Source: a virus
Reading direction: 5' to 3' (one strand)
Virus record (IMG/VR): IMGVR_UViG_3300024581_003789
Span: 1-59,664 of that record
Length of the DNA stretch: 59,664 nt
This document shows, one piece after another, positions 4,626 through 59,524 of this stretch. The position numbers and the translations under genes were made by a program. Under the pieces are notes generated by a model. The model was given only the letters and a program-made list of their open reading frames with translations, was not told where the DNA came from and did no database searches. Each line of letters starts with the position of its first letter. The stretch's first letter is position 1.

Positions 4626-5832
4626 AGTTGATGTATATAAAAGAGAAGTCTTAGTTGACTTTTTAAAAAAAGAAAAAGAGCATTTTTTGAACATTGCTGA
4701 TAAAGGTGCTCTTTATCAAAACAAAGCCTTGATAGAAACATCAGGGCTTAATTATTTTAATATACTACCAGTTGGAAAAATCAATACAGCTCTAAAGAAT
4801 CTTATCTTAAAAGAATACGACGATTGTGAAAAAAGATATCCCTACTTAGGAGAATATTTTATAAGCACTTTCTTTGGAGAGAAAGTCAAGACAAAAACCA
4901 ATTTAAGAAAATTTGAAAAGAGATACCAAAAAGACTTTTTGAATTCTATTTCTAATAAAGATGTAAAGATTATTATTGAATGGATGTTTGATAATGTCAA
5001 CCTTGAAAGATCGATTAACATAGACAGGCACGAAGGAAAAGATATCTGCCTGGAAAAAGAAGACAGTTTTTCTCTCAATCTATCATATGACTACGACTTC
5101 TTTAATCCGATGAATAACGTTACTTTTAGAGATTACAAATTTATCATAATCAATGGTTACATAGAGTCAGTTGGCGAAGTCCATCATTTATTTACTAAAG
5201 CAAACGAAACTAAAATCCCTTATGTTATTTTTTGCTATGGAATGTCTGAAGAAGTTAAACACAATATTATGGTCAATAATAAAAGAGGTTCTTTTGTTGT
5301 TCTACCCGTTTCACTAGATTCTAATGATGAAAACACTTTAAATATTTTGAATGATATCGCTGTTCTTCACGACGGAGATATTGTCAGCAGTGACATGGGA
5401 CAAACAATATCACAAGAGGTGAGAAAAGAGCTTAAAACAGGAAAGAAAATATCTTTTAAAGAAGGTAGAATTTATTTAGATCCTGTTGCTAGCAATGAAA
5501 AACTTGACTCACATAAAAAGTTTTTAATTAAAAGATTGGAAGATGCGCTTAATAAGCCTGACGTCAACGTTGATCCTATTAGAAATCGAGTTAAAAACTT
5601 TTCAGTTAAGAGCTTAAACATTTACGTCCCTGATGAAGTAGCCAGACACAATAGTTTCCAAAGAGACATGACTTATTGTCTAGGTTTTTTAAAAAATATT
5701 GATAAAGAATATAAAATTTTATCGATAGGGAAAAAAGATTATTATATACCAAAGGTTTTGGTTAGATACGCTGATGAAAAGCGTAAAAGCCTAGAATCTA
5801 TATTAGAAAACATAGATATAATTTTATCATAG
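4594..5832 (+). CDS. Degenerate GroEL/Cpn60-like protein (intermediate and apical domains kept, ATP-binding motif lost)
   Basis: FIIINGYIESVGEVHHLFTKANETKIPYVIFCYGMSEEVKHNIMVNNKRGSFVVLPV..ILNDIAVLHDGDIVSSDMG aligns by eye with the GroEL apical domain ([77 protein letters not shown]). No GDGTTT. Start overlaps prkA and is uncertain. Confidence 0.8.
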   Translation: MQATICGVTPKVDVYKREVLVDFLKKEKEHFLNIADKGALYQNKALIETSGLNYFNILPVGKINTALKNLILKEYDDCEKRYPYLGEYFISTFFGEKVKTKTNLRKFEKRYQKDFLNSISNKDVKIIIEWMFDNVNLERSINIDRHEGKDICLEKEDSFSLNLSYDYDFFNPMNNVTFRDYKFIIINGYIESVGEVHHLFTKANETKIPYVIFCYGMSEEVKHNIMVNNKRGSFVVLPVSLDSNDENTLNILNDIAVLHDGDIVSSDMGQTISQEVRKELKTGKKISFKEGRIYLDPVASNEKLDSHKKFLIKRLEDALNKPDVNVDPIRNRVKNFSVKSLNIYVPDEVARHNSFQRDMTYCLGFLKNIDKEYKILSIGKKDYYIPKVLVRYADEKRKSLESILENIDIILS

Positions 5833-53517: not shown

Positions 53518-54429
53518 ATGAGAATTAAGAAAAGAAATCTTGTAATGATCATTGAATCTTTTTTAAAAGAAGAAAATGAAACAGATGATAGAAGTAACGA
53601 AGACCAGCTTCAATCTTTAATTGATAGTTACAGATCTAAGTCAGTAGAAGAAAAAAGGACAATTGCTTTTTTTATAAGAGATGCGTTAAGAAAATCAAAT
53701 TCTCTGGAAGGAGAAGCAATATCAATAATTGATGCAGTGATTAAGCATTTAATTAATGAAGAACCGATGACACCTGAGTCGATTGCGACAACTCAAAAGC
53801 TTATAATTGCTTTTATTTGCACAGTGTATGACGCAAAAGATGAAACAAAACGCGCTTTAATTAGTTTTTGGGATGATTATGCACGTCATGTTTTAAATCC
53901 TGCTGCTCCATTTGCAGTTATATCTACACTGGCTGGAGTCCCCGGCCTATCTGTAGTTTTGTATTTTTTAATGGAAGCAGTATGGTTTATCGATCAAGAT
54001 TTATACTACGAACTTTCCGACCTAGATGCAAAATCAATGAAAGCATTAGCTAACGCTGTTACGCTAGGTGGTTTTGAAACTGCAATTGATAATGTAAACG
54101 CTCAAATAGCCGCAAATGACATAGAGTTAATTTTATCAATTTTACAAATGTATTCAAACCCCGCGATCGCTAATCCTGTTACACTAACTGTCGATGGAAA
54201 GTCGTATGTAATAGACGGGACAGCTAAAACTAAAACTGAAGCAAAAGAAAATATTAAAAGATTGATTACGAAAGAGATAATTCCAAATTCTATCTCTTCT
54301 GCTATAAAATCAACAGCAGTAAATTATCTGTCTACTGATCCTGAAAAGTTGCACAAACAAGAAAAAGAGTCTATTGAAAAAAGTAGTGGTACAACTGCAG
54401 CTAAATTTAATGTTCTAGATAGAATATAA
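53518..54429 (+). CDS. Hypothetical protein with internal hydrophobic segment; possible head-internal/ejected protein
   Basis: N-terminal MRIKKRNLVMIIESFLKEE; hydrophobic PFAVISTLAGVPGLSVVLYFLMEAVWFI. Confidence 0.6.
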   Translation: MRIKKRNLVMIIESFLKEENETDDRSNEDQLQSLIDSYRSKSVEEKRTIAFFIRDALRKSNSLEGEAISIIDAVIKHLINEEPMTPESIATTQKLIIAFICTVYDAKDETKRALISFWDDYARHVLNPAAPFAVISTLAGVPGLSVVLYFLMEAVWFIDQDLYYELSDLDAKSMKALANAVTLGGFETAIDNVNAQIAANDIELILSILQMYSNPAIANPVTLTVDGKSYVIDGTAKTKTEAKENIKRLITKEIIPNSISSAIKSTAVNYLSTDPEKLHKQEKESIEKSSGTTAAKFNVLDRI

Positions 54430-55452: not shown

Positions 55453-56058
55453 ATGAATAAATTATCCAAAAGTGCAATTAGAGATATGATTGTACAAGAA
55501 ATCGCTAAAATGGTAGGAGAAGACGCTTTAGTTTCTGGTGATAAAGACATGTATAGAAATACAGGGTTGAATCCTAACGCAAGAACGCCTCATAACATTT
55601 CAACAGTCAAACAATCAGATTCTTACGCAGACTTCGGAGGAGCTTCTACTAGCTCTAGCTGCAGTATTTGCGGTTGCACAGATTTTAACGAAGGTAGCTG
55701 CATGGAGTGTGGATATGTAAAAGAAGAAGTCTTGCAAGAAGCAGGCTGCGGATGCGGAAGTGTATCTTTGCCTGCCGGAAATGACTATTCAATTGAAACA
55801 ATGGGAATGGGAATGTTAAGTAATGTTATGAACGACATGAACGTTTTTGATAAAGCTAATCATGAGAAAGGTCATAATGATTACATGGCAAAACCGTCCT
55901 TATATAAGGTTGCCAAGTATGCACAAAAACTTTTACAAATGATCCCTGACGGTTATGAATTAGACGACTGGCAACGTACAAAAATTGCACAAATTTCTGA
56001 TGATATATCTGAAGTATATCATTCATTAGATTATGACTTTTATAATGACGAGTTTTAA
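55453..56058 (+). CDS. Hypothetical protein with Cys clusters; possible head-internal protein
   Basis: MNKLSKSAIRDMIVQEI; CSICG..CMECG; GCGCG; C-terminal MAKPSLYKVAKYA..L..ELDDWQRTKIAQ..D.IS.VYH.LDY helical module; AGGAG RBS. Confidence 0.6.
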   Translation: MNKLSKSAIRDMIVQEIAKMVGEDALVSGDKDMYRNTGLNPNARTPHNISTVKQSDSYADFGGASTSSSCSICGCTDFNEGSCMECGYVKEEVLQEAGCGCGSVSLPAGNDYSIETMGMGMLSNVMNDMNVFDKANHEKGHNDYMAKPSLYKVAKYAQKLLQMIPDGYELDDWQRTKIAQISDDISEVYHSLDYDFYNDEF

Positions 56059-57326
56059 TGAAATCAATATTAAGCTTATTTGAAGAAACAAAAAAAGATT
56101 GTGTTCCTGATCATTCAGATAGAATGTTAAGAGGATACAAATATCTACCTGCTCAATTCAAAGAGTTTCTTCCTGTAATGCGTCATCCAAATGAAAACTC
56201 TAAAGAGTTCAAAAAAGACATAGAAATTGTTTTAGACTGTCACAAAAACCCTAGCATGACAACTTCTTTTTTGAGAGATGCTGACGAATCTGTCGAAGAT
56301 ATCTTTAAAACATTTTGTGAAGAAAGCGGTTATAAAAACATTGATTGGAAAAAAATAAGTGACGTTTTAAAAGAAGTCGACTCAATTGTTCTTAATCTTA
56401 AGTATGAAAACAATCGACCCAGACCCATACATTATCTCAAAGGTATTGATGACACCATCAAGGCTAAATATAAAAAGTCGCCAAGCTTTCCTTCCGGGCA
56501 CACAACAATGGCGTACTTTATATGTGATGTTGTTTCAAATGCTATTCCTGATTTAAGGCAAGACCTTCAAACCCTTGCCTCGCTAATAGGACAGTCTAGA
56601 ATTGAAAATGCTGTTCACTTTCCAACTGATATTGAATACGGAAGACTAGTCGGCGAAACTTTAGCTGACATATTTTCGAGCGGAAAAGAGAATAGCATCA
56701 ACAAGCACTTAACAAGAAAATGCTACAAATCGCTAGCTGAGAAAATTATTTCAAAAAGCAGTTCAGTCAAAGATGCGATATATGACTTAGCTTATTTTCT
56801 GAATAGAAGCGCAGAGATAGAAAGCGCTAGCATTAATATAGATGATTGCTTTGAAGCTTCAAAATATTTAATGATGGGTATCCCGCCAAAAAATATAACT
56901 AGTTGTCCTCACATTAACTCACACATTGATTCACTTGCCATGGCAAATAATCTTGGTAAGATAGACAGCAATTACAAAGTCCATAATATTCACAAGTGCT
57001 TTGATGAAAAAGTATTAGACAGGGGCCTTCCGGGCGAATTTAGAAATTTCTCACATAGTTCACCCTCAGGTTGCAAATATCCAGAACCTTACGATTTAAA
57101 TCAGAAGCTTAAAAAATGTCACACTTTCAAAGATCAGCCGTGGTTAAGGCATGTTGTTTATGAATACATTCATCCTTTTTGTGACGGAAATGGAAGATCA
57201 GGAAGGGTGATCTTAGTTTCTGATCTAGACTTTGATATTGCAAAGGCTAATTCTTTAATTGGCGATAACTACATTAATAATATTATTGCCCACATACAAC
57301 CTGACAAAATTGAAAAGTTTTTGTAA
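56058..57326 (+). CDS. PAP2/haloperoxidase-superfamily phosphatase fused to a Fic (AMPylase) domain
   Basis: PAP2 motifs K-YENNRP-RP, PSFPSGH, SR-IENAV-H-FPT-D; Fic GEFR and HPFCDGNGRSGR. Confidence 0.88.
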   Translation: MKSILSLFEETKKDCVPDHSDRMLRGYKYLPAQFKEFLPVMRHPNENSKEFKKDIEIVLDCHKNPSMTTSFLRDADESVEDIFKTFCEESGYKNIDWKKISDVLKEVDSIVLNLKYENNRPRPIHYLKGIDDTIKAKYKKSPSFPSGHTTMAYFICDVVSNAIPDLRQDLQTLASLIGQSRIENAVHFPTDIEYGRLVGETLADIFSSGKENSINKHLTRKCYKSLAEKIISKSSSVKDAIYDLAYFLNRSAEIESASINIDDCFEASKYLMMGIPPKNITSCPHINSHIDSLAMANNLGKIDSNYKVHNIHKCFDEKVLDRGLPGEFRNFSHSSPSGCKYPEPYDLNQKLKKCHTFKDQPWLRHVVYEYIHPFCDGNGRSGRVILVSDLDFDIAKANSLIGDNYINNIIAHIQPDKIEKFL

Positions 57327-57328
57327 AG

Positions 57329-57356
57329 TGTAACAGTACCTTCTAAGATATATAAT
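57329..57356 (+). promoter_or_regulatory. Phage early-type promoter TGTAAC-N16-TATAAT (copy 1)
   Basis: Same elements and spacing at 57918 and 58401. Confidence 0.75.
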
Positions 57357-58459: not shown

Positions 58460-59524
58460 ATGGATATCAAAACCTTCGTAAAAGTAGTATCAAACCTTCC
58501 ACCAGAAATTTCAGTATTAGTAAAAGGACCAACCGGTATTGGTAAATCACACATCTTTCACCAGATTGGTAAAGAAATCGGACTAGAAGTATTGGATCGT
58601 CGCCTTTCATACATGACTGAAGGTGACCTTATTGGTCTTCCAGAACTAGTTGATGGTACAACAAGGTTTGCACCAGTTAATTGGTTTATTGAAGCTTGTA
58701 ATGAACCCCGCGTTTTATTCTTTGATGAGCTTAACCGTGCTACATTGGAAGTTCAACAATGTGCTTTCCAAATTGTACTGGATCGAGAGCTTAATGGTCA
58801 TAAACTTCATCCTGAAACCCGTGTCTATGCAGCAGTTAACGAAGGTAGTGATTACCAAGTTACTGAAATGGACCCTGCTCTTCTTCGTCGCTTCTGGTCT
58901 ATTGACTTAGAACCAACAACAGAAGACTGGTTAGAATGGGCTGAAACTATTGGCAATATCGATCCACTTACTATTGGTTTTATTAAGAAATATCCTGCTC
59001 GTCTTCGTCACACAGGTACTTTTGAACCGGGTATTGTTTATCCTAATCCTGCTTCTTGGGCTCGTTTTGACAAAGCGCTTAAATATGCAAATCTTGACCC
59101 ATCTACAAACTCTGGTGAAGATTATAATAGTCTTATCTTTTCTATCGGGTTAGGTTTTATTGGAGAATCAGGAACAATTGCATTTAGTGATTATGTTAAA
59201 AATTATCTAACAAAGTTTAGCCCTGAAGACTTGCTTAATCGATATCACACTAAAAAAGGCGGCGTCAAGTCTAAAATTGACAAGCTCACAAATGACAAAA
59301 AGAACGATTTGATGAGTATCACAATTACATACTTGAAAGATAATAATATTTCTCTGACTCAAGCAAAAACAGCATCTGATTTTATTGCTAGCTGTTCTGA
59401 TGAAATGCTGGTTAATTTCATGAACATGCTTATGGAAACCAAACATCTTGAAAATATTAAAAAGTTTCATCGATATCTTGGTGGTAAGGTTGTAGAAGTA
59501 GTTAACGCAGCGAATAACGTCTAA
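58460..59524 (+). CDS. MoxR-like AAA+ ATPase
   Basis: GPTGIGKS, EGDLIGLP, LFFDELNRA, AAVN, MDPALLRRF, PNPASW. Confidence 0.88.
   Translation: MDIKTFVKVVSNLPPEISVLVKGPTGIGKSHIFHQIGKEIGLEVLDRRLSYMTEGDLIGLPELVDGTTRFAPVNWFIEACNEPRVLFFDELNRATLEVQQCAFQIVLDRELNGHKLHPETRVYAAVNEGSDYQVTEMDPALLRRFWSIDLEPTTEDWLEWAETIGNIDPLTIGFIKKYPARLRHTGTFEPGIVYPNPASWARFDKALKYANLDPSTNSGEDYNSLIFSIGLGFIGESGTIAFSDYVKNYLTKFSPEDLLNRYHTKKGGVKSKIDKLTNDKKNDLMSITITYLKDNNISLTQAKTASDFIASCSDEMLVNFMNMLMETKHLENIKKFHRYLGGKVVEVVNAANNV

Follow-up and report, generated by a model that had tools for sequence, protein, structure and literature searches.

Why would a phage join a phosphatase and an AMP-transferring enzyme in a single polypeptide? 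The question is raised by an open reading frame (ORF) at positions 56058..57326 of a stretch of viral DNA 59,664 nucleotides (nt) long, here called the window, which corresponds to positions 1 to 59,664 of the IMG/VR record IMGVR_UViG_3300024581_003789, i.e. to the first 59.7 kb of a contig of 134,027 bp. The ORF lies on the plus strand, as do its parts and the adjoining features whose coordinates are given below, is uninterrupted and encodes a protein of 422 amino acids (aa; P0001) in which a predicted PAP2 phosphatase domain is followed by a predicted Fic domain. As a domain architecture the fusion is new; its components come from two enzyme families, the PAP2 phosphatases and the Fic AMPylases, that are known and well studied. 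An earlier note, made from the sequence of the window alone, did not recognise the architecture as a described one, and no description of the fusion emerged from the literature on PAP2 with Fic, on Fic with phage or on PAP2 with virion.

A predicted phosphatase joined to a predicted Fic domain

The N-terminal domain (residues ~30-212; 56145..56693) is predicted, from sequence profiles and a structural model, to be a PAP2 histidine phosphatase that has no signal peptide and is of the class A nonspecific acid phosphatase type. It matches the Pfam family PAP2 (PF01569) at residues 112-203 with an E value of 7.5e-14 (52 bits, with a cut-off of 27.2), and one orthologue is labelled 'acid phosphatase (class A)' by JGI. 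The class A nonspecific acid phosphatases (Salmonella PhoN 2A96/2IPB/2AKC, Escherichia blattae 1D2T, Pseudomonas 7F17/7F18), which have the all-helical PAP2 fold and the three PAP2 motifs in common with the fusion, are also its best PDB matches, both by family profile (PhoN, E 4e-17) and by fold, with Foldseek aligning the N-terminal half to PhoN (probability 1.0) and to Pseudomonas 7F18 at TM scores of 0.64-0.69 by target. Unlike these enzymes, the phage-encoded fusion has no signal peptide (and so is not periplasmic), is joined to Fic and carries a conserved N-terminal extension of ~30 residues; identity to them is ~20-24%. The highest mean Kyte-Doolittle hydropathy over any 19 residues of the fusion protein is 1.04, leaving neither a signal peptide nor a transmembrane segment, and the N-terminus is hydrophilic (mean hydropathy -0.67 over 30 residues); the domain is thus soluble, as the earlier note held.

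All three PAP2 motifs reported in that note are present, with the spacing K115-x6-R122-P123, P145-S-G-H148 and S180-R-x5-H187-x3-D191. Motif 1 reads KYENNRPRP (56400..56426), motif 2 PSGH (56490..56501) and motif 3 SRIENAVHFPTD (56595..56630), the last including the predicted nucleophile H187. In an alignment of 102 full-length orthologues, on which all conservation counts given here rest, the catalytic residues K115, R122 and P123 of motif 1, the whole of motif 2, and R181, H187 and D191 of motif 3 are invariant (102/102), and 100 of the orthologues have Ser or Thr at position 180. Motifs kept in this way across 102 orthologues are not a product of chance. An AlphaFold2 (AF2) model of the fusion, built from the orthologue alignment, has a mean pLDDT of 91 and a pTM of 0.83, the sole weak stretch being residues 1-20 (pLDDT 60-73).

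The C-terminal domain (residues ~237-422; 56766..57323) is likewise predicted to be a class II Fic nucleotidyl (AMP) transferase with its own inhibitory Glu. The canonical Fic motif described in the earlier note is found in the same single ORF as HPFCDGNGRSGR (H372-PFCDGNGRSG-R383; 57171..57206); its His, Asn and Arg are retained in 94-100 of the 102 orthologues and the full motif is intact in 93. The match to the Pfam family Fic (PF02661), at residues 361-386, is marginal (E 1.2e-5, 26.4 bits with a cut-off of 24); the family profile matches C. difficile Fic (CdFic) with an E value of 6e-7, and Foldseek pairs the C-terminal half with FICD, Mycobacterium Fic and Coxiella Fic (including 7cb8 and 8cil). 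In a pairwise alignment with CdFic, the fusion's RSAEIES falls on HSNKIEGS of the class II inhibitory helix, the core motif SAEIES (S251, E255; 56808..56825) being aligned with SNKIEG. E255, which sits 117 residues ahead of the catalytic His, is kept in 94/102 orthologues; of the nine with a decayed Fic motif, eight have another residue or an alignment gap in its place. Its loss together with the motif ties it to the Fic active site. In terms of the class II pattern [S/T]-x-x-x-E-[G/N], the fusion has S251-x3-E255 followed by Ser, and Gly or Asn stands at that place in 41/102 orthologues. A further segment, PGEFRNF...SGCKY (57030..57080), with conserved G326, R329 and G338 and short beta elements in the model, is the predicted Fic flap region, by analogy with the Fic family.

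The family matches, the fold matches and the alignment of E255 together indicate a complete class II Fic domain of ~185 residues, more than a bare motif. The motif HPFx[D/E]GNGRxxR and a predicted N-terminal inhibitory helix, in which E255 aligns with the Glu of CdFic, are common to the fusion and to class II Fic proteins (C. difficile 4X2E, Shewanella SoFic 3EQX/3ZCN, human FICD/HYPE 4U04/6I7G). Unlike those systems, the fusion has no TPR or wHTH partner domains, carrying PAP2 instead, and identity is 14-18%. Translation of the exact sub-ranges confirmed all PAP2 and Fic motif coordinates and, together with the orthologue alignment, the earlier statement that both sets of catalytic residues are intact.

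That the fusion is an assembly artefact, an outcome the earlier note had allowed for, is ruled out by more than 100 co-linear orthologues with 28-68% identity from independent marine metagenomes (JGI, ENA, Tara, Logan) and by a common synteny, with the fusion in the same place, in four lineages. A search of 5.8 billion proteins gave at least 161 matches (clusters at 90% identity); the best 120 of these, from JGI, ENA, Tara, Logan and NCBI metagenome assemblies with contigs of up to 220 kb, are nearly all 405-443 aa long and cover the whole query at 36-68% identity with both Pfam domains. Among 1.84 billion cluster representatives, searched exhaustively with HMMER, there were ~30 full-length clusters in addition to stand-alone PAP2, stand-alone Fic and larger fusions. 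Nine full-length copies occur in IMG/VR, on contigs of up to 236 kb, and the ESM Atlas holds two auto-named two-domain clusters (54 and 156 members), all of whose members with a taxonomic record are viral. The full-length fusion was absent among the matches listed in a pattern scan of one genome per species for 185,579 prokaryote species, those listed being single-domain and of modest identity, and it was absent from the GenBank phages searched. The fusion gene has been found in viral sequence only. Of the earlier proviso that it might be already widespread and characterised, the first half proved right and the second did not, no paper on it having been found.

Natural variants and relatives of each half

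Nature has taken the two domains apart in several ways. In nine divergent orthologues the His/Arg residues of Fic are gone and every PAP2 residue is kept; one of them (P0134) occupies the standard place in the gene order described below. In a maximum-likelihood tree these Fic-decayed orthologues appear on either side of a split that has full support, on long branches that leave their exact placement unsure, and Fic catalysis has therefore decayed at least twice. One orthologue (P0164) is PAP2-only, with 205 aa and the leader kept, and is encoded in the arrangement 'primase, small gene, PAP2' in three independent assemblies. Among the 102 aligned orthologues there is none with an intact Fic motif and a damaged PAP2 domain. 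The invariance of PAP2, the loss of Fic and the PAP2-only orthologue thus point to the phosphatase as the indispensable part and to Fic as an optional addition. As far as sequences can tell, these variants argue against PAP2 being a mere helper of Fic, and the writer/eraser pair suggested earlier fits them poorly for the same reasons.

The PAP2 domain belongs to a viral, signal-less, soluble family with the extra conserved positions D76, F83 and P164, which occurs alone (~205-235 aa), fused to HNH, or fused to CTP_transf_like plus NTP_transf_2. PAP2 was also seen fused to NUDIX+DUF4269+AAA_33 (P0208) and to Topoisomerase IB (P0212). A further protein (P0190, L181:5145-7676) is a bona fide portal (Phage_portal/Portal_Mu) with a C-terminal PAP2 domain that has all catalytic motifs. 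The portal-PAP2 fusion adjoins the large terminase gene and occurs on four contigs, with a second cluster (P0283) at 48% identity; it would put twelve phosphatase copies within the capsid. Its recurrence beside the terminase means that at least some phages carry a predicted PAP2 enzyme of the same type inside the capsid.

The stand-alone viral Fic homologues have the canonical inhibitory motif RSNEIEGY. There is no PAP2 gene next door at the stand-alone Fic loci (L014-L016, L108, L109) and no Fic gene next door at the stand-alone PAP2 loci (L017/L018), and the gene of 217 aa that follows P0163 does not encode Fic; P0146 and P0150, on 1-kb contigs, are uninformative on neighbours. A PolyA_pol head (P0170) and LRV/HEAT repeats are fusion partners of other relatives of the Fic domain. 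The locus L108:2974-6358 has a stand-alone Fic gene and, after it, a second gene that encodes a HAD-like DFDGT motif together with a CCA-adding/polyA-polymerase head and is apparently interrupted by a homing-endonuclease-like ORF (4650-5450).

The locus and the leader peptide

The source of the contig is an uncultured marine T4-type myophage. Nearly all genes lie on one strand, and the genome encodes TerL, a portal, a gp21-type prohead protease (Peptidase_S77, E 1.4e-28), a Gp23 capsid protein (E 4.6e-77), two sheath paralogues, baseplate wedge proteins, UvsX, DnaB, RNR and PhoH. The closest TerL proteins of GenBank phages, from Microcystis phage Mel-JY01 and Flavobacterium phage immuto, are only 41% identical. 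The fusion gene sits in a conserved order: RuvC, primase, a small Zn-knuckle protein, PAP2-Fic, a protein of ~150 aa, AAA_5, DUF2201/VWA, a single-chain SbcCD, two small genes and TerL. The same order is found in loci whose fusions are only 29-55% identical, which marks the fusion as a core gene that has been inherited vertically in a T4-type clade.

Immediately upstream lies the gene of the Zn-knuckle protein (201 aa; 55453..56058), characterised from a homologue alignment and an AF2 model. The coupling of this Cys-rich gene to the fusion, pointed out before, is seen in its stop codon TAA, which shares its last A with the fusion's ATG (TAATG, a 1-nt overlap); the same overlap occurs at the orthologous loci L005 and L013 and on the P0064 contig, and a 19-nt gap replaces it in the pseudo-Fic lineage P0134. 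The protein consists of an N-terminal helix, a Zn-knuckle (CxxC..CxxC..CGC) and a near-invariant C-terminal part of ~65 aa, the remainder being predicted disordered, and its AF2 model is poor (pLDDT 56). It has 171 homologues, many of them on fusion-bearing contigs, and the C-terminal ~65 residues are nearly invariant across 39 homologues while the adjoining fusions have diverged to 40% identity. The L013 version is without the N-terminal helix. A role as a FicA-type antitoxin was considered and rejected: the fusion has its inhibitory Glu in cis, and the T-x3-E-G string of the upstream protein lies in an unconserved part.

Downstream, the first of four exact TGTAAC-N16-TATAAT promoter-like sites (57329..57356) starts 3 nt past the fusion stop. 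The four sites, at 57329, 57918 and 58401 of the window and at 59847 of the genome (L001:847), each lie just 5' of one of four consecutive genes (175 aa, a small ORF, AAA_5 and DUF2201/VWA); their number was reached in 0/100 shuffles, and there are none in the 57 kb preceding the first. As the sites begin right after it, the fusion closes a long unit, which opens among the genes of the baseplate and fibres. For the ORF listed from 57862, the true start probably lies after the second site. The T4 late promoter TATAAATA showed no enrichment, and generic sigma-70 and terminator scans gave background level only. Further along, a MoxR-like AAA_5 ATPase (window 58460-59524) and a DUF2201_N/VWA protein (genome 59897-61315) form a pair kept downstream of the fusion in every related locus. 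They are followed by an ORF of 1043 aa (genome 61327-64458; L001:2327-5455) that combines Metallophos (Mre11/SbcD-like) with an SbcC/Rad50-like part, as in all related loci seen. The two tandem tail-sheath paralogues, ~1000 aa each, lie at 84117-90185 of the genome (L002:6117-12182).

The fusion protein opens with a conserved, leader-like decapeptide, MKSILSLFEE (56058..56087), which resembles the N-termini of T4 Alt, IpII and IpIII. T4 Alt, a capsid-packaged ADP-ribosyltransferase, begins with MELITELFDE, and IpII/IpIII carry the capsid targeting sequence MKTYQEFIAE, the pattern common to them being M, a hydrophobic pair at 7-8 and Glu at 10. Compared with the Alt sequence, taken like the other from the T4 record, five of the ten residues are identical (M1, I4, L7, F8, E10), which makes the fusion leader the best match to the Alt N-terminus among the 110 ORFs of the genome. 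The matching positions are those conserved in the family (of 102: S3 71, I/L4 89, L7 77, F8 82, E10 64, T11 71), and E/D9 is conserved too. About half of the orthologues depart from the strict tag pattern of ~10 residues ending in hydrophobic-x-Glu. The proposal that the fusion is an analogue of T4 Alt, packaged by its leader, thus gains circumstantial support from the leader match and the gp21-type protease, and loses some from the orthologues that leave the strict pattern. Like Alt, the fusion is a predicted host-modifying enzyme of a T4-type phage with a gp21-type protease in its genome; it differs in that Alt performs ADP-ribosylation, whereas AMP transfer and phosphate hydrolysis are predicted for the fusion, whose packaging and cleavage are only proposed.

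A second class of tag, basic and then hydrophobic-x-Glu, opens unrelated proteins (MRIKKRNLVMIIES, MKIKKRDLLALVES, MRITKNDLRKIIVES and MKITKQNLKKIIREE) and may be capsid-targeting-like. It was seen at 53518-53580 of the window, at 112522 of the genome (L003:15522), at L109:660, 3019 and 3648, and in the proteins P0169 and P0177; the stand-alone viral Fic homologues also bear it.

Possible roles of the fusion

We tentatively favour the view that the fusion is a bivalent, host-directed effector with two largely independent activities, possibly delivered with the DNA. The PAP2 phosphatase would be the constant, indispensable activity, cytoplasmic or virion-borne, most likely acting on soluble phosphoesters, nucleotides or pyrophosphate, or phosphoproteins. 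To this the Fic module, which could be lost, would add the self-inhibited, gated AMPylation (or de-AMPylation) of a host protein. The protein would probably be made late, with the virion genes, and translationally coupled to the Zn-knuckle protein; it may enter the prohead by means of its Alt-like decapeptide, be trimmed by the gp21-type protease and take effect as soon as infection begins. The independence of the domains is argued from the decay of the Fic motif in at least two well-supported clades and from the PAP2-only orthologue, and the link to the virion from the fusion of the same viral PAP2 type to a portal beside TerL in two clusters. The packaging step, taken by itself, is a possibility that we regard as somewhat doubtful.

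Unrelated catalytic modules on one phage polypeptide are also found in the polyvalent proteins, in which several effector modules are combined and some are joined to head proteins (Iyer, Burroughs, Aravind 2017, PMC5512222), as is PAP2 in the portal-fused relative described here. That survey makes no mention of PAP2 or Fic (PMC5512222). In contrast to polyvalent proteins, the fusion is limited to two modules and belongs to the stable core genes rather than to a variable cassette.

Several observations weigh against the bivalent effector. The Pfam Fic match barely exceeds its cut-off, and the residue after the inhibitory Glu is Ser, not Gly or Asn, in the fusion protein. In ~15-20% of orthologues neither position 9 nor position 10 of the leader is a Glu, so that cleavage cannot be taken for granted, and the N-terminal helix might be no more than a part of the fold. 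Finally, viral PAP2 is found time and again fused to nucleotidyltransferases with folds other than that of Fic, which hints at coupling of the two activities rather than independence.

Such coupled catalysis, in which PAP2 would hydrolyse the pyrophosphate or nucleotide by-product of Fic, or dephosphorylate a residue that Fic then AMPylates, is unlikely in our judgement but the most probable of the alternatives. It would make sense of the nucleotidyltransferases, unrelated in fold, to which viral PAP2 is repeatedly joined (Fic; CTP_transf_like plus NTP_transf_2; DUF4269); class A acid phosphatases do use pyrophosphate, and the pTM of the model suggests a fixed two-domain body. It is harder to reconcile with a PAP2 domain that stays invariant in Fic-dead orthologues and also occurs without Fic, and with the stand-alone viral Fic homologues that have no PAP2 neighbour.

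A role in nucleic-acid end processing or repair appears rather improbable. PAP2 would here be a polynucleotide 3' or 5' phosphatase, the role played by the phosphatase half of T4 Pnkp, and Fic would nucleotidylate a repair protein or the end of an RNA or DNA molecule, as a measure against host nucleases. The partners of relatives suit this idea, namely the AAA_33 kinase-like, NUDIX, HNH and Topoisomerase IB domains of PAP2 fusions, the PolyA_pol/CCA-adding head joined to Fic and the HAD-like plus CCA-adding gene adjoining stand-alone Fic, as do the RuvC, primase and SbcCD genes around the fusion itself. To our knowledge, however, the characterised Fic enzymes all modify proteins, and the conserved flap-like segment suits a protein substrate. 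The fusion is moreover without a ligase or kinase, and phage multi-domain proteins often join unrelated effectors (PMC5512222).

Still less probable is a non-packaged, cytoplasmic auxiliary metabolic enzyme, whose phosphatase would free phosphate or reshape nucleotide pools in hosts living in phosphate-poor seawater, with Fic as a nucleotide-sensing regulator. The phage is marine and carries PhoH, the class A name given by JGI to one orthologue is in keeping with such a function, and the presence of an inhibitory Glu speaks for a Fic domain that is gated or regulatory. Yet the strict core-gene status and fixed place by the head-packaging genes are unlike those of mobile auxiliary genes, phosphate freed inside the cell by an enzyme with no export signal brings no obvious gain, and the portal-fused relatives point to the virion. 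That the N-terminal domain is a vanadate-dependent haloperoxidase and no phosphatase is very hard to believe: the active-site motifs are common to both families and some orthologues match the Pfam family VCPO_2nd (PF22778), but all the best sequence and fold matches are acid phosphatases, and the domain is phosphatase-sized, whereas haloperoxidases are larger and two-bundle.

A more daring version of the capsid-delivered enzyme, which we consider a long shot, has the two domains act in sequence on one host molecule at DNA entry, PAP2 stripping a phosphate, regulatory or at a nucleic-acid end, and Fic capping the freed group with AMP. If true, a host defence or signalling protein would be locked off by a new kind of injected 'erase-and-rewrite' effector, and soluble PAP2 enzymes would have their first physiological role within virions.

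To return to the bivalent effector, we know of no phage Fic protein of this kind with a known target, and of no soluble PAP2 enzyme to which a part in the life cycle of a phage has been assigned. The fusion belongs to the stable core genes of an abundant, uncultured clade of marine T4-type phages, and its Fic-dead and PAP2-only orthologues, together with the portal-fused PAP2, are natural experiments on which half is indispensable. With a small gene and a soluble product, it also lends itself readily to expression. Its substrates could reveal a new step of host takeover or counter-defence, and the protein could serve as a test of T4-like capsid-targeting tags far beyond the T-even phages.

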